A stretch of DNA of 64,000 bases from Rhodothermales bacterium (GCA_965214485.1 CBDCBW010000015.1:246227-310226); one strand, 5' to 3'. Shown: positions 49,146 through 58,898, numbered from the stretch's first letter. The notes: generated by a model not told the origin, from the letters alone. A program made the numbers and translations.

Positions 49146-50513
49146 ATGCTCCGACGGTTCCGCAGCGAGTTCCTCGACATCCGGCGCGACGAGTGGCCGC
49201 TGGCGCTCTCGATGTTCGGGTATTTCTTCCTCGTCATCACCTCGTTCTGGATCCTCAAGCCGATCAAGAAGAGCCTGTTCATCCAGTTCTACGACGAGGC
49301 TGGGTTCTCGCTCGCCGTCGGTGGGCTGTTCCAAATGGAGTTCCTCGCCTCGCAGGCGGAGCTCTTGGCAAAGGTCCTCAACATGGTCGTCGCAGCCGTC
49401 GCGGTGATTGTGTTTACCATCCTCGCGCGGCGGCTCCGGCGGGAGCAGCTCACCTACGTCTTCGCCGGGTTCTTCCTCGCGGCGTTCGCCGCCTACTCGC
49501 TCGTCATCAACGACCCGGGCGACGTGACCGTCTGGAGCTTCTACCTCTTCGGCGACCTGTGGACGACGCTGATGGTGGCGACGTTCTTCGCCTTCCTCAA
49601 CGACAGCGTGACGCCGAGCGCAGCGAAGCGGCTCTACGGCCTCGTCGTCCTCGGCGGCGTTGCGGGCGGGGCGTTCGGGACGACGTTCCTGGCCTTTTAC
49701 ATCGACGACGTCCCGGCCTCGGCGTGGCTGTGGATCTGCTTCGGGATGGCCGTCGCGATCATCGGGCTGGCCTACATCGCCGGGCGGATCGTCCGCCGGA
49801 ATCCGCCGCCCGAAGTGTCGCCCACCGGCGTCGATCCGGGGCGCGGCGAGGAGGCAGCGAAGAAGTCGAACGCGGCGCTCGAAGGCGCGCGGCTCGTTTT
49901 CCGCTCGAAGTACCTCTTGTCGATTGTCGCGATCGTCGGCATCTACGAGATCGTCTCGACGATCCTCGACTTCCAGTTCTCGTCGACGATTGCCCACTAC
50001 CTCGACGGCCCGGCCATCGGCCAGCAGTTCGCGACGGTCTTTGCGATCTCGAACGTGGTCGCGCTCGTCGTCCAGCTTTTGCTAACGACCGTCGTGATGC
50101 GGCGCTTCGGGCTGACGGTGGCGCTGCTCGTCACGCCGTTCGTGATGATCCTCGGCTCCACCGCCTTCCTTGCGCTCCCGATCCTGTGGGTCGGCTCGCT
50201 CCTCAACACCGCCGACAGCGCGTTCGCCTACTCGATCAACCAGTCGGCGCGCGAGGCACTCTACACGCCGACGACGCGCGACGAGAAGTACAAGGCCAAG
50301 GCGTTCATCGACATGTTCGTCCAGCGCTTCGCCAAGTCGATAGCCGTCGGCGTGAGCCTGCTTGTGACCCTCGTCTTCACCGACTTCTCGACGATCCGGT
50401 GGCTGAGTCTAGGGACCCTCGCCCTCGTCGCCGTGTGGGCCTTCGCCGCGCGCTACGCCGGACGGCAGTTCGCCGCGATGGAGGGGCAAGAGGAAGCAAA
50501 GGCCACCGGGTGA
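49146..50513 (+). CDS. Npt1/Npt2 (TLC ATP/ADP translocase-like) transporter
   Basis: ILKPIKKSLF, AKRLYG, DFQF, REALYTP...KYKAKAFIDMFVQR. Confidence 0.9.
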   Translation: MLRRFRSEFLDIRRDEWPLALSMFGYFFLVITSFWILKPIKKSLFIQFYDEAGFSLAVGGLFQMEFLASQAELLAKVLNMVVAAVAVIVFTILARRLRREQLTYVFAGFFLAAFAAYSLVINDPGDVTVWSFYLFGDLWTTLMVATFFAFLNDSVTPSAAKRLYGLVVLGGVAGGAFGTTFLAFYIDDVPASAWLWICFGMAVAIIGLAYIAGRIVRRNPPPEVSPTGVDPGRGEEAAKKSNAALEGARLVFRSKYLLSIVAIVGIYEIVSTILDFQFSSTIAHYLDGPAIGQQFATVFAISNVVALVVQLLLTTVVMRRFGLTVALLVTPFVMILGSTAFLALPILWVGSLLNTADSAFAYSINQSAREALYTPTTRDEKYKAKAFIDMFVQRFAKSIAVGVSLLVTLVFTDFSTIRWLSLGTLALVAVWAFAARYAGRQFAAMEGQEEAKATG

Positions 50514-50599
50514 GTCGGCAACCTTCGCCATTCCCCTTCGTTATTAGTCCCCTTCGTTATTAGGACGATTACGACTCCACGCACCCGAACCGCGCTGTC

Positions 50600-50890
50600 A
50601 TGACTGTCACCGTTGACGAAGCTGGTCGCATCCTTCTCCCGGAGCCTGTGCGCGACCGGCTCGGCCTTACGCCCGGCACGCCCCTCGTGCTCGATGTCCA
50701 CGACACCGGCGACGGTGCATCGACCGTCGCACTTCGCCGCGAAGACGCGACGGCGCTCGCGCAGGACGGTGCCCTCCTCGTCCATAAGGGTCGCCTCACG
50801 GATGCAGACTTTGATGCAAGGGCGTTTCTTCGCATACAGCGTGACGAGCGTGCCCGCAAGCATGGGGGGCTGGGCGGAGACGAGCGGTGA
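50600..50890 (+). CDS. AbrB/MazE-type antitoxin
   Basis: VTVDEAGRILLPEPVRDRLGL.PG. Confidence 0.9.
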   Translation: MTVTVDEAGRILLPEPVRDRLGLTPGTPLVLDVHDTGDGASTVALRREDATALAQDGALLVHKGRLTDADFDARAFLRIQRDERARKHGGLGGDER

Positions 50891-51330
50891 GCGGCCCGCG
50901 CACGCTGCTCGACACGTCCGTCCTCGTCGCTGCGCTCGAAGCCGGTCATCCGCACCACGCGGTCGCCCGTCCGTATCTCGAAGAAGGCCACCGGGAAGAG
51001 CGCACCCTGTTTGTTTCGGCGCACGCGCTCGCCGAAACGTTTGCCGTGCTCACGGTCCTTCCCGTCGCCCCACGCATCACGACGACCGAGGCTCAGCGAC
51101 TCCTGCGGGAAAGTGTGCTCCGAGTGGCCGAGGTCGTCACGCTGGACGCTGCCGACTACGACGCTGCGCTCGAACGCATGGTCGCTTTCGACCTCTTCAG
51201 CGGAGCCGTCTACGATGCCCTTCACGTCCGAGCCGCCGAGAAAGCAGGGGCCGCCGAACTCGTGACCTTCAACGGGCGCGACTTCCGACGGATGCCCCCG
51301 GAGCCACCCTGCCGCCTCGTCGTTCTGTAG
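50887..51330 (+). CDS. PIN-domain (VapC) toxin
   Basis: LLDTSVLVAA, LAETFAVLT, YDALH, LVTFN.RDF. Confidence 0.92.
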   Translation: MSGPRTLLDTSVLVAALEAGHPHHAVARPYLEEGHREERTLFVSAHALAETFAVLTVLPVAPRITTTEAQRLLRESVLRVAEVVTLDAADYDAALERMVAFDLFSGAVYDALHVRAAEKAGAAELVTFNGRDFRRMPPEPPCRLVVL

Positions 51331-51332
51331 CG

Positions 51333-51435
51333 TCCGCTGGCTGAGTCTAGGGACCCTCGCCCTCGTCGCCGTGTGGGCCTTCGCCGCACGCTACGCCGGG
51401 CGGCAATTCGCCCAGATGGAAGCCCGAGAGGGAGC
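51333..51435 (+). repeat. Displaced copy 1 of the Npt gene 3' end
   Basis: 51333-51420 matches 50395-50482 at 82/88. Confidence 0.95.
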
Positions 51436-51458
51436 AGCGGGATAAGCACGCCCAACCA

Positions 51459-51782
51459 TCAGCCTGTCACGCGGAGAACAACGCCCGCGGTAATCGATTC
51501 GATCAACGTCTTCACCTTCGGCACGAGCGGCGCGAGATCCTCGGTACGGTTGCTCCGTGCTTCCAGTAACACGACCCCGATGTCGTACCGGCTGAGGTTT
51601 TGCTGGTGCGGGATGCCCTGATCTGTCGTGATGAGTACGTCGAATGACGCAGACGCCACGGTGAGTAGTTTTCCATTTTTCCTACCGCTCCAGCCCTTCT
51701 CTTGCACGGTTCGTGCCTCGATCTCTGGCGCGAGGAGTCGGACCAGCGCCTTGGGCATGTTCTCGTCTAGCAGCGCTTTCAC
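51459..51782 (-). CDS. DUF5615 PIN-like toxin
   Basis: LLDENMP, GWSGRKNG.LL, LITTDQ...QQN. Confidence 0.9.
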   Translation of the reverse strand: MKALLDENMPKALVRLLAPEIEARTVQEKGWSGRKNGKLLTVASASFDVLITTDQGIPHQQNLSRYDIGVVLLEARSNRTEDLAPLVPKVKTLIESITAGVVLRVTG

Positions 51783-51988
51783 GCCGCCTCTGCTTTCTCC
51801 AGCGTCATCTCCAGATAGCCGACGGCCTGCTTCCGGCTGACCGTGGGGAAGTCACCGAGGAACTTGTCGATAGAGTCCCCTGAGGCAAGATGCTGAACGA
51901 GAATCTCGACGGGAACTCGGGTCCCGGCGAAGACGAGTGCCCCGTTCATAACGTCGGGGTCGCGCGAGATGATCTGCGAGTAGTCCAT
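51779..51988 (-). CDS. DUF433 antitoxin
   Basis: DPDVMNGALVFAGTRVPV...DFPTV. Confidence 0.92.
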   Translation of the reverse strand: MDYSQIISRDPDVMNGALVFAGTRVPVEILVQHLASGDSIDKFLGDFPTVSRKQAVGYLEMTLEKAEAA

Positions 51989-52055
51989 AGCAGCGTGCGT
52001 GTTGATCTAGGCCTGAAACGCGGCTCCGCGCAGCCCGATCCCGGTGGTGGGGCCG

Positions 52056-52129
52056 TCGCCGCGCGCTACGCCGGACGGCAGTTCGCCGCGATGGAGGCGC
52101 GTGAGGAGGCTACGGCTGCGACCAGATAA
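52056..52129 (+). repeat. Displaced copy 2 of the Npt gene 3' end
   Basis: 52056-52097 is identical to 50443-50484 (42 bp). Confidence 0.95.
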
Positions 52130-52152
52130 CAAGGTCGGCTCATGCGCTGGAG

Positions 52153-52551
52153 CTACAACGATGCCTTCCAGAGCGTCGCCACCCCGTAAGATGCGAAGGC
52201 AGCGTCTCGCGTGACAACCGGCATACCCTCCGCTTGGGCCTGCGCGATGATGAGGCGGTCGAAAGGGTCTTTGTGGTGGAACGGGAGGCGCTTTACCCTG
52301 TCGAGGTGGCGCGGCTGCACGGGCAGTACGTTCATCGCGTTGCCTCGGACCTGCCGTTCGACCAACTCCGGGAAAGACAGTGCGAGGTTGAGACGACCGA
52401 GGCTGGCCTTGATCGCCATTTCCCAAAGACTCGCCACGCTAAGGAAGCGCTCGTTGTCCGGATCGAGGATGAGAGCGCGGGCGTGCTCGCTGAGCCGGGC
52501 GTCGCCCCCAACGAACCAGAGAAAGGCGTGCGTGTCGAGGAGAAGCCTCAC
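52153..52551 (-). CDS. PIN-domain (VapC) toxin
   Basis: LLLDTHAFLW, SLWEMAIK, HHKDPFDRLIIAQA. Confidence 0.95.
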   Translation of the reverse strand: MRLLLDTHAFLWFVGGDARLSEHARALILDPDNERFLSVASLWEMAIKASLGRLNLALSFPELVERQVRGNAMNVLPVQPRHLDRVKRLPFHHKDPFDRLIIAQAQAEGMPVVTRDAAFASYGVATLWKASL

Positions 52552-52775
52552 GGCGCGTAAGGTTCGAAGCCATCAATCGGCGCGTCGAAGTCGTCGGACA
52601 TCTCGATCAACCCCCGTGCGCTTCCGAAGACCGGACGCGGCTCGGCGGCCAGTACCAGGGTGAGCCGGAAGGACGCTCCGTCCCCTCGGGCGATCACGAT
52701 GTCCTCTCCCGAGGCGGCTTCCTCGATCAGTTCAGGGAGCCGCTGCTGGGCCTCCTCTAGCTTGACAGTCCGCAT
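52548..52775 (-). CDS. Phd/YefM-type antitoxin
   Basis: EAQQRLPELIE...GEDIVI...FGSARG..MSDDFDAP. Confidence 0.9.
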   Translation of the reverse strand: MRTVKLEEAQQRLPELIEEAASGEDIVIARGDGASFRLTLVLAAEPRPVFGSARGLIEMSDDFDAPIDGFEPYAP

Positions 52776-53033
52776 AGCGTCTTCGGTTGGTCTAGGCCCC
52801 GTCCCGTTAATCCGGTTCCTGGCTCGGCGAGGCCCCTGAAGCGCCCTGCGGCGTTGTCCTCCTCGCCCGATGCTACGGCATCTGGCTCGTCGGACGCCTG
52901 GCCGGGTCCCTCCAGGGTCTCTCGCTCGCCGACGGACCGACCTACGTGACAGAGCCTAGGCGGTGTACGAAGAGAACCTCGCGTGGTTCGTGTGGCAGTC
53001 CGGCATCAGGCATCGACCCAACCCAAGAGAGAC

Positions 53034-53116
53034 TCGCCGTGCGCTACGCCAAACGGCAGTTCGCCGCGATGGAGAAGCGCGAAGAGTCCGCTGCCGGCGT
53101 AGCGAGAAGGGCTTAG
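53034..53116 (+). repeat. Displaced copy 3 of the Npt gene 3' end
   Basis: 53034-53074 matches 50443-50483 at 38/41. Confidence 0.9.
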
Positions 53117-53820
53117 GTAGCGAGAGAAGGGTTCGAGGCCATCGTGGGCGAAAGGCGACGGAGCAGCCCGAGGTCGAGGATGCTGAAGCCGACTTTGGAA
53201 AAGACCGGGAGCACGACGAACAGGAGGGTGTCCGTCCCCTGATCGAGCAGGCCGAGCCCAGACGGGCCGAGCATCCATACCGTCGGGTACCCGATCCAGA
53301 GCACGGTAAGGTAGCCCAGCACGGTCGTATAGACGCCGCCGAGGTCGTCGCCCTGGCTGAAGGCGAGGCGGCGGAGCGGCCCCCACGTGAGCCATAAGAC
53401 CGTGGCAAGCGCGGCGACGCCGATCCAGAAAAAGATGAACCGTGTCGGCCCGGACGCCAGGTCGCCGATAAGCCCGCAGAGGATCATGATCACGTCGGCT
53501 CCGACGAGCGCCCCGATGAGCACGTAGTTCCGCTCCTTGAGCCGGTGCATCGCGGTGAACGAAAGGGCGAGGAGGATGAGCGGCGTCGTTACGATCCAGT
53601 CGGCGTAGCGCGCCCAATAGGTCGTCTGTCCATCGACCTCGACCGTGCCGAGCCCGAGTGACATGGCGAGATATGCGATTCCCGACCAGACCGGGATGAG
53701 GATGGCGACGAGGTATTCCTCGCGGTGGACGCCGCGCGGGTCGCGCGCCCAGACAGCGAAGAGCAGCGCACCGGCCGCCATGCAGGCGACGTAGATCAGG
53801 TGGAGTGTGGGTTCTGACAT
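53113..53820 (-). CDS. Microbial rhodopsin, xenorhodopsin type
   Basis: 7 TM; RYADWIVTTPLILLA (DTA motif); LPVFSKVGFSILD with retinal Lys and Pro at the BR D212 position. Confidence 0.93.
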   Translation of the reverse strand: MSEPTLHLIYVACMAAGALLFAVWARDPRGVHREEYLVAILIPVWSGIAYLAMSLGLGTVEVDGQTTYWARYADWIVTTPLILLALSFTAMHRLKERNYVLIGALVGADVIMILCGLIGDLASGPTRFIFFWIGVAALATVLWLTWGPLRRLAFSQGDDLGGVYTTVLGYLTVLWIGYPTVWMLGPSGLGLLDQGTDTLLFVVLPVFSKVGFSILDLGLLRRLSPTMASNPSLAT

Positions 53821-53917
53821 GAGACGTGAGGAGAAGGGCGGAGCAGAAGGGAACCCCTCCGACCGGTCTTTTCCCCACGGGGTTCCACAGGAACGGGGTT
53901 CCGTAGGACGCTACACG

Positions 53918-53965
53918 CTAGAACAGCCGCCGGGTGCGGATGGTGCCGGGGACGGCGTGAAGTGC
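53918..53965 (-). repeat. Displaced copy of the serA 3' end
   Basis: 41/48 identical to 54676-54723; encodes ALHAVPGTIRTRRLF*. Confidence 0.93.
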
Positions 53966-53968
53966 GAA

Positions 53969-54175
53969 TCAGGCAGACCCGGACGTAGTCACCCGCCGCG
54001 GCTTCCTCTCCGTCACCTCCCAACCGCATGCCTCGGCGCGCTCACGGGCATGTTGGGAAATCGCCCGCACGTCGTTGCCGAAGCGAGCCGCGTACGCCTC
54101 CCGGTTGGCGCGCACTTCGCGCATCACCTCGTCCTCCCAGTCTTCCGGTGTCTCGTCTACCCCGTCAGATCTCAT
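53969..54175 (-). CDS. Small putative antitoxin
   Basis: DEVMREVRANREAYAARFGNDV; overlaps the PIN stop. Confidence 0.75.
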   Translation of the reverse strand: MRSDGVDETPEDWEDEVMREVRANREAYAARFGNDVRAISQHARERAEACGWEVTERKPRRVTTSGSA

Positions 54176-54654
54176 GGTGTCGTCGCGGCTAGTAGCTCCT
54201 CGGGCGAACAGAGCGTCGGTGAGCGATAGCCTCTGGTACGGCCTACCTCGGCTATTTGCTCCCGAAGCACCGGGTTGGCAATGTGCTTGAAGTTCCACGT
54301 CAGCAGATAGTCCGCCCCAGAGACGGTCGCTACGGCGATGTGGTTTGCGTCTGCGGTAGCCTTCTCCGGGAGCGGTACCTCGCGCAAGAGCGCCTCGGCG
54401 AGGGCATCGGACTCGGCAGAAGCGGCTACGACTTCAATGCTGCGCAGTGCTTCGAGTCGAGCCGCGGCAGCGGCCGGGTCGCCCAGCTCGGCTTCGGCCA
54501 GGACCAGCGGGGAGATGAACAGGTCGTAGCGGGAGCGCCGCGTGCTCCACCACCTGAGGGTATGCTGCTGCCGGGCGGCGGCGATCACACGGCCACTCGG
54601 GCGAGCGGTGAGGTAGCTGACGACGGACGTTTCGATGTAGAGCGACGGCTTCAT
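54172..54654 (-). CDS. PIN-domain toxin
   Basis: LYIETSVVSYLTARPS, DANHIAVA, YLLTWNFKHIAN, CSPEEL. Confidence 0.92.
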   Translation of the reverse strand: MKPSLYIETSVVSYLTARPSGRVIAAARQQHTLRWWSTRRSRYDLFISPLVLAEAELGDPAAAAARLEALRSIEVVAASAESDALAEALLREVPLPEKATADANHIAVATVSGADYLLTWNFKHIANPVLREQIAEVGRTRGYRSPTLCSPEELLAATTP

Positions 54655-54675
54655 CGGCTTGAGCTCCCATTCGGG

Positions 54676-55905
54676 TTAAAACAGCCGCCGCGTGCGGATC
54701 GTGCCGGGGACGTCGTGGAGCGCGGCGAGCGCCGCCTCGGAGGAGGCGGTGTCCACGTCGATCACGACGTAGCCGACCTCGCCCTTCGTCTGGAGGTACT
54801 GCCCCGAGATGTTCACCCCCTGCTCCGAGAACACGCGGTTGATTGCGCTCAGCACGCCGGGCCGGTTTTGGTGGACGTGGAGGAGCCGGTGCTGGCCGGG
54901 GTGCGGCGGGAGCGCGACCTCGGGGAAGTTCACCGCCGACAGGGTGCTGCCGTTGTCGCTGTAGCGGACGAGCTTGCCTGCCACCTCGGCCCCGATGTTC
55001 TCCTGCGCCTCGACCGTCGAGCCGCCGATGTGCGGCGTCAGGATCACGTTGTCGAAGCGCCGGAGGGGCGACTCGAACGGGTCATCGTTCGAGCGCGGCT
55101 CGGTGGGGTAGACGTCGAGCGCCGCCCCGCCGAGGTGCCCGCTCTCGAGCGCGTCGGCGAGGGCACCGAGGTCCACGACGGTGCCGCGCGAGGCGTTGAT
55201 GAGGACGGCCCCGGGTTGCATCTGCGCCAGCTCGCCGGGGCCGACCATCCACTTCGTCTCGGGCGTCTCGGGGACGTGCAGCGTCACGATGTCGGCCTCG
55301 GCCAGGAGGTCGTCCAGGCTCGCGCGCGGCGCGGCGTTGCCGAGCGGCAGCTTCGAGCCCGTGTCGTGGAACACGACCTGCATCCCGAGGGCCTCGGCGA
55401 GGACCGAGAGCTGCGAGCCGATGTTGCCGTAGCCCACCACCCCGAGCGTCTTGCCCCGGATTTCGCGGGCGTCCGCCGCGCTCTTGGCCCAGACGCCCCG
55501 GTGCGCGAGCGCGTTCTTGGCCGGCACCCCGCGCAGGAGCAGGATGGCCTCGGCGAGGACGAGCTCGGCGACGGAGCGCGTGTTCGAGAACGGCGCGTTG
55601 AAGACGGGAACCCCCCGCTCCGCCGCCGCGCCGAGGTCGATCTGGTTGGTCCCGATGCAGAAGGCCCCCACCGCGACGAGCTTCTCGGCGGCCTCGAAGA
55701 CGGCCTCCGGTAGCTGGGTCCGCGAGCGGATGCCGAGGAAGTGCACGTCGGCGAGGAGGCCGGGCAGCTCGCCCTCCGGCACGGTCCCCTCGACGCGCTC
55801 GACGGCGGTGTACCCGGCCTCTTCGAAGACCGCGACGGCGTTCGGGTGGATGCCTTCGAGGAGCAGGACGCGGAGACGGTCGCGGGAGAATGAGAGGGCA
55901 GGCAT
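54676..55905 (-). CDS. serA: D-3-phosphoglycerate dehydrogenase
   Basis: GIRSRTQ, FCIGTNQ, NAPFSNTRSVAEL, TPHIGGST; C-terminal ACT domain. Confidence 0.96.
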   Translation of the reverse strand: MPALSFSRDRLRVLLLEGIHPNAVAVFEEAGYTAVERVEGTVPEGELPGLLADVHFLGIRSRTQLPEAVFEAAEKLVAVGAFCIGTNQIDLGAAAERGVPVFNAPFSNTRSVAELVLAEAILLLRGVPAKNALAHRGVWAKSAADAREIRGKTLGVVGYGNIGSQLSVLAEALGMQVVFHDTGSKLPLGNAAPRASLDDLLAEADIVTLHVPETPETKWMVGPGELAQMQPGAVLINASRGTVVDLGALADALESGHLGGAALDVYPTEPRSNDDPFESPLRRFDNVILTPHIGGSTVEAQENIGAEVAGKLVRYSDNGSTLSAVNFPEVALPPHPGQHRLLHVHQNRPGVLSAINRVFSEQGVNISGQYLQTKGEVGYVVIDVDTASSEAALAALHDVPGTIRTRRLF

Positions 55906-56069
55906 CGAACCGATGGGGCGCAGGCGGAGGAGGGCGCAAGATAGCGGTGCGCCCGACAGCGGAAAGCCAACGCCGGACGCCCGACGGCGGAAGGCCGACG
56001 GCGGGAAGCCGACGCTGGGAGGCCGAGGCCGGGCGGCGTTATCTTGCGCGCAGGCTACTTCTCCCGCGT

Positions 56070-58898
56070 ATGCTACGCTCGACCGGTACGATCCTCGACC
56101 TGCGCGTCGGCGAGCGCGCGCTCGTGGGGATGATGTTCGCGTACAACGTCGCGCTGCTCGTCACGCTCTACCTGCTCAAGCCGGCGCGCGACAGCCTGTT
56201 CCTGATCGAGGTCGGGGCGGCGCAGCTCCCGCTGGTCTTCCTCGCGGCGGCGGCGGCGGTGGTGCCGGTGACGGTGCTCTACGGGCGGATCGGGCGGCGG
56301 GTCCGGCTCTCGCGGCTCGTCAACGCGACGACGCTCGTGCTGATCGCCTCGCTGGTCGTGATGCGGTGGGCGGTGGCGCTCGAGGCGGACTGGACGTACT
56401 TCCTGCTCTACGTCTGGGTCTCGATCTACAGCGTGCTGGCGACCTCGCAGTACTGGCTCCTGGCCGGGGCGGTCTTCGACCCGGCGCAGGCCAAGCGCAT
56501 CTTCGCGCTGCTCTCGTTCGGCGCGATCCTCGGGGCGATCGTCGGGGGCGAGCTGACGGGCTACCTCGTCGAGGAGGCCGAGATGCGGACGCGGGACCTG
56601 CTGTGGGTCGCCGTCGGCGTGCTCGGCCTCACGGTGGTGCTCATCAACCTGATCCGGTGGCGGGCGACCGACGGGCGGTACGGGCGGCCCGAGGGGCTGC
56701 GCCGCAACGACACGCCCGCCGAGCGCAGCCCGGTCCTCGGCGTGCTCAAGGCGTCGAAGCACCTCCAGCTCATCACCGCCGTCATCGCGGTGGCGGTGCT
56801 GACGACGGCGCTCGTGGACTTCCAGTTCAAGACGGTCTCCTCGGAGGCCTTCCCGGTGCGGGCCGACCTGACCTCGTTCCTGGGGAGGTTCTACGGGCGC
56901 GTCAGCATCATCGCGCTGGGGCTGCAGTTCTTCCTCGCGCCCCGGATCATCCGGATGCAGGGCGTCGGCGGCGCGCTCCTGCTCCTGCCGACGGCCCTCG
57001 CCGCCGGGTCGATCGCGATGTTCCTCGCGCCGGGCCTGATCGCCGGGACGCTCCTGCGCGGGGCCGACCAGAGCCTCAAGCACTCCATCGACCGGACCGG
57101 GCGCGAGCTGCTCTTCCTGCCGGTCCCGCTGGCGGTGAAGAAGCAGACGAAGGTCTTCATCGACGTCTTCGTGGACCAGGGGATGCAGGGGCTGGCGGGC
57201 CTGCTCCTGCTGGCGGCCCTCGCCCTCGGCGTGACGGTGCAGGGCGTGAGCCTCCTCGTGCTGGCGCTCCTGGTGGTGTGGATCGGCCTGGTGGCGTGGG
57301 CGCGGCAGTCCTACATCCAGGCCTTCCGCGAGGCGCTCCCGCGCCAGAGCGACGAGCCGCTGCCGCCGCCGCCGCCGCCCAGGGCGGAGGACGTCCCGAC
57401 GCTCGTCGGCGCGCTGTCGTCGCCCGACACGGAGGACGTCCTCGACACGCTCGAGACCTTCGACGCGATCGACGCCGAGATTCCGGTGGACGAGGCCTAC
57501 GCGCTGCTCGACCACCGCTCGGCGCGCGTCCGGCGGCGCGTGATCGCGCTCCTGGCGAAGCAGCGCGAGGAGGGCTTCGCCGAGGTGATCGCGGGCTACC
57601 TCCGCGACCGCGACGCCGAGGTCCGGCTCGAGGCCGCGCGCTTCCTCTACCAGGCGCTCGACGGCGAGCACCAAGTGCTCCTGAGGCGCGGCCTCGAGCA
57701 CCCCGACGTCCGCATCCGCGCCGCCGCCGTCGGCGTCATCGCCGAGTCCGGGACGGAGGCCGAGCGCGCGCTCATCACCGACGACATGCTCCGGAGCCTC
57801 CTGGACCACACCGGCCCGGCCCGCGTCGAGACGAACATCGAGGCCATCAAGGCGCTCGGCGCGCTCGACCGGCCCGCGTTCCACCCCGTGCTGCGGGACC
57901 TGCTCGACCGCGACCAGCCGCAGATCGTCCGGGCCGCGGTCCAGGCCGCCGGCAAGGCGGGGCAGCGGCTCTACGTCGGCAAGCTCATCCGGCTCCTCGG
58001 CGAGAAGCCCTACGAGAAGGCCGCGCGCGAGGCGCTCGTCGCCTACGGCGAGCGCATCTTCGGCACGCTCTACGACCACCTCACCGACGAGGAGGTCCCG
58101 GAGCCGGTCCGCCGCAACATCCCCCGCGTGCTCTCCGAGCTCCCGACGCAGTCGGCCGTAGACCTGATGCTGCTGAGCCTGGAGCGCCTGCGCGCGCCGC
58201 TGCTCTACGACGTGGTCAAGGCGCTCAACAAGATCCGCGCGAGCAACCCCGGCCTCCGCTTCAACGAGGCCGCGATCGACGCCGCCGCCCTGGGCGAAAT
58301 CCGCGCCCTGGCCACCGTGCAGGCGGTCCTCTACCACCACCTCAAGGCGAGGGACCCGTTCGCCCGCTCGGCCGGCGCGGGCCGCGTCCGCGAGGCGCTC
58401 TACCACGAGCGCGAGCAGAGCCTCGAGCGCGTCGCCCGGATGCTCGGCCTGCGCTACCCCTCGACGGACATGCACAGCGCCTACCTCGGCCTGACCGAGG
58501 ACGAGACGCTCCGCGCTGCCGCCGCCGAGTTCCTCGACAGCGTCCTCGACTGGGAGCTCAAGCGCTTCCTCGTCCCGCTCCTCGACGCGGCCCCGGACCA
58601 GGGCGACGTGCGCGTGGCCGAGGAGATGGCCGAGCAGTCCTTCCCGACGTGGCAAAGCGCCCTGCGCAACCTCCTCCTCGTCCGCCACCCGCGCCCGCTC
58701 GCCTGCGCCCTCGCCGCCGCCGTCGAGGACCTCCCCGACGCGCTCCCCGACGACCTCGCCGAGATCGCCCTCGCCGCCTGCACCCCGGACCCCTCCGACG
58801 ACCCGCCCGAGATGCACGGCGAGGCCCCGGCCCCGTTCCGCCCCTCGGCCTCGGGCGACGGCGCGACGGTGGCGTCGGAAACAGGGGACGCCGGGTAG
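56070..58898 (+). CDS. Npt1/Npt2-family transporter fused to HEAT repeats
   Basis: LLKPARDSLF, AKRIF, DFQFK, RELLFLP; C-terminal half has DAEVRLEAA and DVRIRAAA repeats. Confidence 0.88.
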   Translation: MLRSTGTILDLRVGERALVGMMFAYNVALLVTLYLLKPARDSLFLIEVGAAQLPLVFLAAAAAVVPVTVLYGRIGRRVRLSRLVNATTLVLIASLVVMRWAVALEADWTYFLLYVWVSIYSVLATSQYWLLAGAVFDPAQAKRIFALLSFGAILGAIVGGELTGYLVEEAEMRTRDLLWVAVGVLGLTVVLINLIRWRATDGRYGRPEGLRRNDTPAERSPVLGVLKASKHLQLITAVIAVAVLTTALVDFQFKTVSSEAFPVRADLTSFLGRFYGRVSIIALGLQFFLAPRIIRMQGVGGALLLLPTALAAGSIAMFLAPGLIAGTLLRGADQSLKHSIDRTGRELLFLPVPLAVKKQTKVFIDVFVDQGMQGLAGLLLLAALALGVTVQGVSLLVLALLVVWIGLVAWARQSYIQAFREALPRQSDEPLPPPPPPRAEDVPTLVGALSSPDTEDVLDTLETFDAIDAEIPVDEAYALLDHRSARVRRRVIALLAKQREEGFAEVIAGYLRDRDAEVRLEAARFLYQALDGEHQVLLRRGLEHPDVRIRAAAVGVIAESGTEAERALITDDMLRSLLDHTGPARVETNIEAIKALGALDRPAFHPVLRDLLDRDQPQIVRAAVQAAGKAGQRLYVGKLIRLLGEKPYEKAAREALVAYGERIFGTLYDHLTDEEVPEPVRRNIPRVLSELPTQSAVDLMLLSLERLRAPLLYDVVKALNKIRASNPGLRFNEAAIDAAALGEIRALATVQAVLYHHLKARDPFARSAGAGRVREALYHEREQSLERVARMLGLRYPSTDMHSAYLGLTEDETLRAAAAEFLDSVLDWELKRFLVPLLDAAPDQGDVRVAEEMAEQSFPTWQSALRNLLLVRHPRPLACALAAAVEDLPDALPDDLAEIALAACTPDPSDDPPEMHGEAPAPFRPSASGDGATVASETGDAG

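Follow-up and report, generated by a model that had tools for sequence, protein, structure and literature searches.

How chromosomal toxin-antitoxin (TA), restriction and defence genes move although no mobility gene is visible has long been an unsolved question, and several described systems bear on it. Chromosomal integrons typically carry TA cassettes; integrative elements such as e14 and phage 21 at icd, and the accreted ICESt/CIME elements at fda, restore the 3' end of their target gene; exchange of the minimal mobile elements of Neisseria is thought to proceed via homologous recombination in their flanks; and the pdif modules of Acinetobacter plasmids are bounded by oppositely oriented XerC/XerD sites. 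The closest described system is insertion with long target duplication, known from restriction-modification systems; it was reportedly presented by Nobusato et al. in 2000 (Gene 259:99), and a mechanism for it has been lacking since that year. A review of TA systems cites that work for restriction-modification systems only (PMC2654758). In the available text of Furuta, Abe & Kobayashi (2010; PMC2853133) such insertions are defined by an insert of less than 20 kb, direct repeats of more than 30 bp, a single copy of the repeat in an insert-free genome, the lack of a mobility gene in or beside the insert, a repeat that is not multicopy and a cargo of restriction and modification genes. As far as the accessible parts of this paper and of Mruk & Kobayashi (2013; PMC3874152), which also treats long target duplication, extend, the mechanism is left open, a 'virus-like' cycle via the repeats is hypothesised, and the insertions are reported for restriction-modification genes only. 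Here we describe a locus in 64,000 nucleotides (nt) of a Rhodothermales bacterium genome (GCA_965214485.1, CBDCBW010000015.1:246227-310226, or C15:246227-310226; this whole stretch is called the window), in which the 3' end of a gene encoding an Npt-like transporter recurs three times downstream, with one predicted TA pair in each interval. At a probability of about one half, we consider the locus to consist of three tail-flanked addiction cassettes at a conserved gene end, to be one case of a genome-wide insertion process of the long-target-duplication type, and to reflect spread driven by homology.

The last 40 to 118 nt, approximately, of the transporter gene (whose product also matches the NCBIfam NTP/NDP exchange transporter superfamily, under its cut-off) were found by repeat search and alignment to be repeated three times downstream (Table 1), with all four copies in direct orientation. 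The identities given in a preliminary description of the window, made from the sequence alone, were reproduced exactly: 82 of 88 positions for copy 1 (50395-50482 against 51333-51420), 42 of 42 for copy 2 (50443-50484 against 52056-52097) and 38 of 41 for copy 3 (50443-50483 against 53034-53074). A chance origin of the repeats is ruled out. All copies read in frame to their own stop, giving alternative C-termini, and our translations agree with the ends listed before. Between copy 1 and the gene, four codons are changed synonymously and a fifth from A to Q, and the copy starts at 51333, 2 nt past the stop of the VapC gene (open reading frame end 51330); both points had been noted in the preliminary description and were confirmed by coordinates and alignment. 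The differences between copy 1 and the gene are concentrated toward the 3' end. When the 41-nt core was searched for with at most five mismatches, only 50443, 52056 and 53034 were found in the window (copy 1 exceeds five mismatches), and in the whole 3.74-Mb genome the tail matched at E<1e-10 in these four places only, the next match having an E-value of 1.3e-3. Dispersal of the core as a repeat unrelated to the gene end, which the preliminary description had named as a finding that would speak against it, is ruled out by this confinement to four places. The stop codon of tail 3 (53114-53116) overlaps with that of the convergent rhodopsin gene, as expected if tail 3 was formerly the working end of the transporter gene.

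Each interval holds one adjacent pair of a toxin-family and an antitoxin-family gene according to Pfam (MazE and PIN, DUF433 and DUF5615, Phd and PIN), in agreement with the single, unrelated TA pair per interval that had been claimed, with the MazE match (24.2 bits, cut-off 24.7) and the Phd match (22.7 bits, cut-off 29.8) both lying under the Pfam cut-offs. As far as can be judged from sequence, the pairs fit the gene layout of type II TA systems. The units in the window measure 0.68-0.98 kb and their repeats 41-118 nt.

The same structure recurs throughout the genome. We compared the genome with itself for direct-repeat pairs of 35-300 nt with at least 80% identity and a spacing of 0.3-6 kb, called genes by a crude codon log-odds model, and counted as tail pairs those next to a gene encoding 150 or more amino acids, with one copy ending at most 35 nt from its stop and the other copy located downstream of the gene. 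Among 105 local direct-repeat pairs, 29 pairs at 24 genes agreed with this definition, 23 of them ending at most 7 nt from the stop, compared with six pairs at gene starts and one plus one in the wrong-side controls. Three loci (C10:141277, C13:121969 and C17:26800) were removed as neighbouring paralogues with a common C-terminal domain, and four were added by hand for which the host gene had been overlooked by the gene caller, leading to a final set of 25 loci (48.8 kb in total) with a displaced tail 0.6-5.7 kb downstream of the 3' end of the host gene. A search for tail partners 6-150 kb away yielded only two more loci. The hosts are mostly housekeeping genes: rpoC, polA, clpB, thiC, carB, priA, gcvP, nadB, msrA, genes encoding a NifS-like desulfurase and a pyrophosphatase, rlmD, a gene of the CcmF/NrfE heme lyase family and others.

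TA-type genes are present at 14 of the 25 loci, e.g. ParE with RHH, ParE-like, DUF2442 with DUF4160, PIN_3, Phd with YoeB, a ParE fragment with Phd, a Panacea-domain protein, PIN, MNT with HepT and (twice) DUF3368 with UPF0175, and a second array with three tail copies carries PIN_3 with DUF6364 and then MazE with PIN. Restriction or defence genes are found besides the predominant TA pairs, and further cargo comprises two AAA_21 ATPases, GmrSD, a DNA methylase and DUF559 (families found at 4 of the 25 loci), as well as three secreted proteins with a type IX secretion system (T9SS) sorting domain; IS1595 and IS200 transposases in the intervals appear to be secondary insertions. The preliminary description had proposed to compare each gene end with the sequence behind it and to test for TA enrichment between the copies; tail-bounded intervals, 1.3% of the genome in length, contain five of its 25 PF01850 matches (P=1.6e-5). 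The Npt gene end is not a special site: the same structure is found at about 25 gene ends without a common motif.

A number of further observations concern the same intervals or resemble them. Identical IS1595-family transposase genes are located in the intervals at the priA end (C9:428607-429284) and the polA end (C17:449495-450172). At the clpB end (C18:117147-122330) there are three tail copies, between which an AAA_21 ATPase with an IS200 transposase is followed by a 236-amino acid protein of unknown function with an N6_N4 DNA methylase; the latter unit is possibly a restriction-modification unit in the arrangement described for Helicobacter pylori. We also found mirror-image loci, in which the 5' end of a gene has a second copy further upstream, separated from it by other genes (C9:495922-498026, C17:555799-561593 and C17:272412-275658), and tandem PIN-type TA cassettes that have no host-gene tail (C17:528447-529899, C12:454817-456676 and C17:438792-440767), the copies of which are 81-99% identical and 0.7-1.4 kb apart.

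We compared the locus of the window's genome (G000), from the transporter gene to the next conserved genes, with those of seven relatives (G001-G004, G006, G008 and G009), four of the same genus and three of a sister genus, all of which have an orthologue of the transporter with 85-90% identity. The stretch between the Npt stop and serA (the latter adjoining the variable region in G001, G002, G008 and G009) is different in each of the eight genomes. Behind the Npt stop we found a gene encoding a 604-amino acid CitMHS transporter in G001 (with a tail copy of 128 nt); ParE with RHH and an orphan Phd (85.5% nucleotide identity to the Phd gene of the window) in G002; HicA with HicB and then large secreted proteins in G003; the MazE-PIN cassette of the window (71-78% nucleotide identity) in G004, with a tail copy that has the identical left edge; ParE-like, DUF433 and an IS110 transposase in G006; a MOSC protein and a secreted protein in G008; and only about 0.5 kb with a weak Fic/Doc fragment in G009. 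Tail copies thus occur in three of the eight genomes and a single tail in G002, G003, G006, G008 and G009. The cargo at this breakpoint has turned over and the site in G009 is nearly empty, as the preliminary description had expected of relatives, and the CitMHS transporter of G001, flanked by tails, indicates that TA genes are not an obligatory cargo. The residues past ..QFAxME of the transporter differ in all species and the displaced tails of the window resemble the normal Npt ends of other species, which supports the earlier proposal of successive events displacing previous ends.

In G004 the transporter gene lacks the usual stop and reads about 37 codons further, into the spacer ahead of the MazE gene, so tail replacement appears able to lengthen the host protein. 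Between G000 and G004 the synonymous divergence (dS) is 0.37 for the transporter gene and 0.79-1.16 for the VapC and AbrB genes, a gap that is suggestive of separate acquisition of cassette 1 but is confounded by the much stronger codon bias of the transporter gene (GC content at third codon positions 0.93). A search of metagenomes with a degenerate 23-nt pattern of the Npt core returned 97 loci, none of them with a relative of Npt by tblastn, the pattern being too loose.

Other gene ends are reused in a similar way. At the PIN_3 locus G003 shares the cassette, G004 has a displaced tail along with different cargo, and G001, G002 and G006 have single tails; the bases that follow the displaced tail of G003 are those that follow the single tail of G001, which indicates that displaced tail and downstream flank together represent the original arrangement. 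At the rpoC end G003 carries two displaced tails and G006 one, with no cargo in common with the window's genome. When the last 60 residues of PolA were compared with 301 genomes of the phylum, a nearby second copy was found only in G000 and in the low-GC genome G161, which belongs to another family (a second match in G308 is a distant paralogue). In G161 195 nt of the polA end are repeated with 81% identity at a spacing of 727 nt; the copies are separated by a gene for a 98-amino acid CBM48-like protein, and the displaced tail is followed by a PemK toxin gene. Moreover, a ParE/RHH cassette that in G000 stands behind an msrA-like gene, with a tail copy, recurs behind Npt in G002 (79% nucleotide identity), indicating that cassettes move between different genes as well.

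The displaced tails behave as alternative functional gene ends. In nearly all pairs the homology stops 0-7 nt past the stop codon, with unrelated sequence beyond, and in 22 of 24 displaced tails the first in-frame stop is at the homologous position (the remaining two are an indel artefact of the count and the window's copy 1). The type of stop differs in 13 of the 24 pairs, although the adjacent sequence is about 95% identical, and the differences between copies are distributed as 56, 44 and 139 over the first, second and third codon positions (21 loci, without C15:362457, which needs gaps). These features bear on a rival explanation, in which the inserts are independent insertions with long target duplication, made by an illegitimate process (staggered-break repair or template switching) that copies 40-270 nt of recipient sequence, with later drift and gene conversion creating the differences and the repeats having no role in spread. 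Plain self-duplication would have copied the stop and random staggered cuts would miss it, whereas the stop differs in more than half of the pairs and the repeat ends cluster there; the clustering of differences at the 3' end of Npt copy 1 and the presence in two species of one cassette with an identical left boundary argue against it as well. For it speak the bases of the tails, which are homogenised within genomes: displaced tails usually bear the lineage-specific bases of their own genome, the copy of G004 matching the G004 gene and the copies of G003 the G003 genes, even though the shared cassette of G003 is only 79% identical to that of the window's genome. This points either to frequent gene conversion between copies or to donors of the same lineage. 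One rpoC tail copy in G003 is identical to the gene even beyond the stop, one cassette stands behind two different genes, and insertion with duplication and without a mobility gene has been recorded with restriction-modification systems, as the text available to us shows (PMC2853133). On balance we regard this explanation as unlikely, yet as the strongest of the alternatives.

The preliminary description saw no integrase at the locus, and indeed none of the five matches to Phage_integrase (PF00589) in the genome is inside the window or near any tail locus. Pfam revealed no integrase among the cargo of any of the 25 loci, and no recombinase-bearing element was found at the eight Npt, six PIN_3 and six rpoC loci of the genomes examined, a small sample of species. 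By eye, no shared junction motif or microhomology was detected in 25 junction pairs, no formal motif search having been made, and the left edges of the tail copies vary between cargoes at one gene. Folded as single-stranded DNA, the Npt tails did no better than shuffled sequences (z-scores of +0.19, -0.89, -0.35, -0.02 and -1.77), by which an attC-like hairpin is ruled out. An integrase nearby or acting in trans was likewise considered and rejected: none was found at the tail loci, nor were distant tail partners beyond the two loci mentioned. With 25 targets that have no visible motif in common, few integrases elsewhere, no hairpins and no intact element, a site-specific recombinase is unlikely, and the lack of a shared motif at some 25 gene ends favours a homology-based or illegitimate mechanism.

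The same observations weigh on the idea that integrative elements with an att site at a gene's 3' end gave rise to the cassettes, as remnants or as non-autonomous riders, the recombinase acting in trans or having been lost and the addictive TA genes having been left behind. Such elements are classically marked by replacement tails that differ synonymously and bring a stop of their own, they are known to form tandem arrays at a single att site, and the same gene ends are reused in several species. Nevertheless, the number of target genes, the location of the five integrase matches away from the tail loci, the scarcity of tail partners 6-150 kb away, the lack of an integrase in the cassettes or at the loci examined in relatives, and the differing left edges all count against it, and we consider it improbable, more so than independent duplication.

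Read support was derived from contigs of one public metagenome run, which may be the source sample of the window. These contigs equal the window with zero differences over 50455-51387 (gene tail, cassette 1 and tail 1; depth 8-10) and over 51358-52085 (tail 1, cassette 2 and tail 2; even depth of 8-10), but they break at the tails, and the order of the cassettes is without independent confirmation. An assembly artefact had been named as a concern in the preliminary description; in such a case the 42-nt core would have led the assembler to chain unrelated pieces. It is compatible with these breaks and with the identity of the gene core and copy 2 over 42 nt, which is longer than a 31-mer. The contigs agree with every cassette-tail junction, the same architecture is present in the independent assemblies of G001, G003, G004, G006 and G161, and we give an artefact almost no credence. 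The only joints listed for the contigs are unrelated to the tails, e.g. from 52959 to 55677, arising from a repeat resembling a miniature inverted-repeat transposable element (MITE). The same sample contains a relative of the transporter gene (49961-50327, 28 differences in 367 nt) that is about tenfold commoner (depth 86), so a related population coexists there as a potential recombination partner.

Taken together, we favour homology-driven spread of tail-flanked cassettes, and infer the following course. At each event a replacement 3' end with its own stop, together with a compact accessory operon, would be placed before the current gene end, the old end would remain downstream as an in-frame promoter-less pseudo-tail, and repeated events would result in the succession gene - cassette - tail - cassette - tail. 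A dedicated recombinase would not be involved: the initial junction of tail and cassette at a gene may be a rare illegitimate join, after which the unit, bracketed by two homologous stretches, could be copied by RecA-type recombination into related genomes or before a resident cassette, by double crossover of linear DNA or by single crossover of a circle looped out between tails. As the flanking repeats make inserts easy to delete, cargo that is harmful to lose (TA, restriction-modification and defence genes) would remain, and such retention by addiction would explain why both restriction-modification and TA systems occur in this way, even though only the former cut DNA. The earlier interpretation of successively inserted tail-and-TA units is in this sense partly supported, and two of the routes it named, single crossover of small circles and homology-facilitated recombination, may apply.

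Several points weigh against this reading. The right homology arm would be only 41-270 nt long, short for RecA-dependent exchange, and uptake of DNA by this lineage would have to be assumed. Homology arms are insufficient to bring the same ParE/RHH cassette to two genes, for which an extra illegitimate step is needed. The resemblance of most displaced tails to the gene of their own genome fits duplication of the recipient target, and the excess of third-position differences is only moderately above that expected for one selected and one neutral copy. No deletion, circle or tail-to-tail joints were seen among the contigs, which cannot show absence. Finally, no recombination event was observed, the gene calls are crude, and no event can be dated because all relatives are different species.

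A wider proposal, which we put forward tentatively and with more doubt than confidence, is that the cassettes are homology-armed mobile units that home by the copied last 40-270 nt of a housekeeping gene and use host recombination only, in this lineage and perhaps throughout the Bacteroidota. If true, such units would form a recombinase-free class of mobile elements that stack into integron-like arrays, swap the C-terminus of the host protein each time and explain the insertions with long target duplication. Independent of this proposal, about 25 clean cases constrain the mechanism through their stop-ended repeats, allelic copies, arrays, homogenised tails and reused gene ends. The pattern implies repeated replacement of the last residues of core proteins such as RpoC, PolA and ClpB, and it offers a simple reason for the accumulation of addictive cargo between long direct repeats. 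The scan, in which the last 100 nt of each gene are compared with the next few kb, is applicable to any genome collection.

The features of the locus and its surroundings are listed in Table 1. The MITE-like repeat has more than 50 copies in the genome with 84-98% identity, and pairs of it form local direct repeats elsewhere too, e.g. C15:399938/403145 and C17:109631/111184. Compared by tblastn with the Npt-serA loci, the rhodopsin gene matched only G000 and none of the loci of the seven relatives. The possible extra TA-like pair has no Npt tail copy behind it, and paralogous pairs with about 72% nucleotide identity are located on C3 and C17. Right beyond serA, and kept in relatives, is a gene for a second Npt-like protein of 1002 amino acids (55890-58898, + strand); its N-terminal part weakly resembles an NTP/NDP-exchange transporter, and its C-terminal extension is long.

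Table 1. Features of the transporter locus (positions counted from the first nucleotide of the window; aa, amino acids; asterisk, stop)
Feature	Position	Strand	Evidence
Host gene, TLC/Npt-like MFS transporter, 455 aa	49146..50513	+	Pfam TLC 83.7 bits, MFS_1
Functional gene tail (repeat copy 0), end ..RQFAAMEGQEEAKATG*	50395..50513	+	repeat search, alignment
Cassette 1: MazE/AbrB-type antitoxin (50600-50890) and PIN/VapC toxin (50887-51330)	50600..51330	+	Pfam
Displaced tail 1, in frame to TAA, end ..RQFAQMEAREGAAG*	51333..51445	+	89% identity to gene tail, 104 nt
Cassette 2: DUF5615 (PIN-like; 51459-51782) and DUF433 (51779-51988)	51459..51988	-	Pfam
Displaced tail 2, in frame to TAA, end ..AMEAREEATAATR*	52050..52129	+	core 52056-52097 identical 42/42
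Cassette 3: PIN/VapC (52153-52551) and Phd-type antitoxin (52548-52775)	52153..52775	-	Pfam
MITE-like dispersed repeat of about 170 bp, secondary insertion in interval 3	52789..52966	.	genome copies
Displaced tail 3, end ..AMEKREESAAGVARRA*, stop TAG at 53114-53116	53034..53116	+	repeat search, alignment
Bacteriorhodopsin-like gene within the variable region	53113..53820	-	Pfam Bac_rhodopsin 198.9 bits
Possible extra TA-like pair, weak PIN_3-like protein of 160 aa and protein of 109 aa	53969..54654	-	PIN_3 E=0.096
Conserved right flank, phosphoglycerate dehydrogenase gene serA	54676..55905	-	NCBIfam NF008759, 647.5 bits, cut-off 404

Like the insertions with long target duplication, the locus has inserts that are small and free of mobility genes, direct repeats measuring tens to hundreds of bp and an addictive cargo. 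Insert size and repeat length are within the limits given above, five relatives have a single tail, no mobility gene is present and the repeat is not multicopy, the MITE-like repeat being a separate, secondary element. The cargo differs, since the window contains three TA pairs and no restriction-modification genes; among the tail loci only the clpB end carries an N6_N4 DNA methylase. Also unlike those cases, the cargo here is mostly of the TA type, the repeat consists of coding sequence up to the host stop, the copies behave as different alleles (differing in the stop in 13 of 24 pairs) and arrays of two to three units occur. As far as the available text of PMC2853133 shows, 9 cases and a few dozen more were found across all genomes surveyed, compared with about 25 loci in one genome here, and the repeats of the Haemophilus cases overlap gene ends by 2-15 bp only.

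The preliminary description called the array integron-like. This is apt for the layout, as in integrons and integrase-less attC clusters, of ordered, promoter-poor, single-operon cassettes separated by a repeated element, but not beyond it: there is no IntI near the array, the repeats are host coding sequence without hairpin folds and differ from locus to locus, and the cassettes are in both orientations (the + strand bears cassette 1, the - strand cassettes 2 and 3), not co-oriented behind a common promoter. Elements of the e14/CIME type are similar in their synonymous-rich replacement tail with its own stop, the displacement of the old tail and tandem accretion; they are, however, many kb in size and carry or adjoin a site-specific recombinase, whereas the units described here are 0.6-2 kb and none of the 25 loci has one. 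Like the minimal mobile elements of Neisseria, varied accessory cassettes without mobility genes are situated between the same conserved genes, but those elements replace one another and are not known to leave duplicated gene ends or to form arrays. The pdif modules differ in the orientation of their sites, all four Npt copies being direct; no search for a dif-like motif was made. In the openly accessible literature, excluding subscription papers and supplements, we came across no report of duplicated gene ends enclosing TA cassettes. The locus represents a variant of an insertion type that is known but still unexplained, one that is unusually dense in this genome, tied to the 3' ends and stops of genes, loaded with TA cargo and arranged in arrays.

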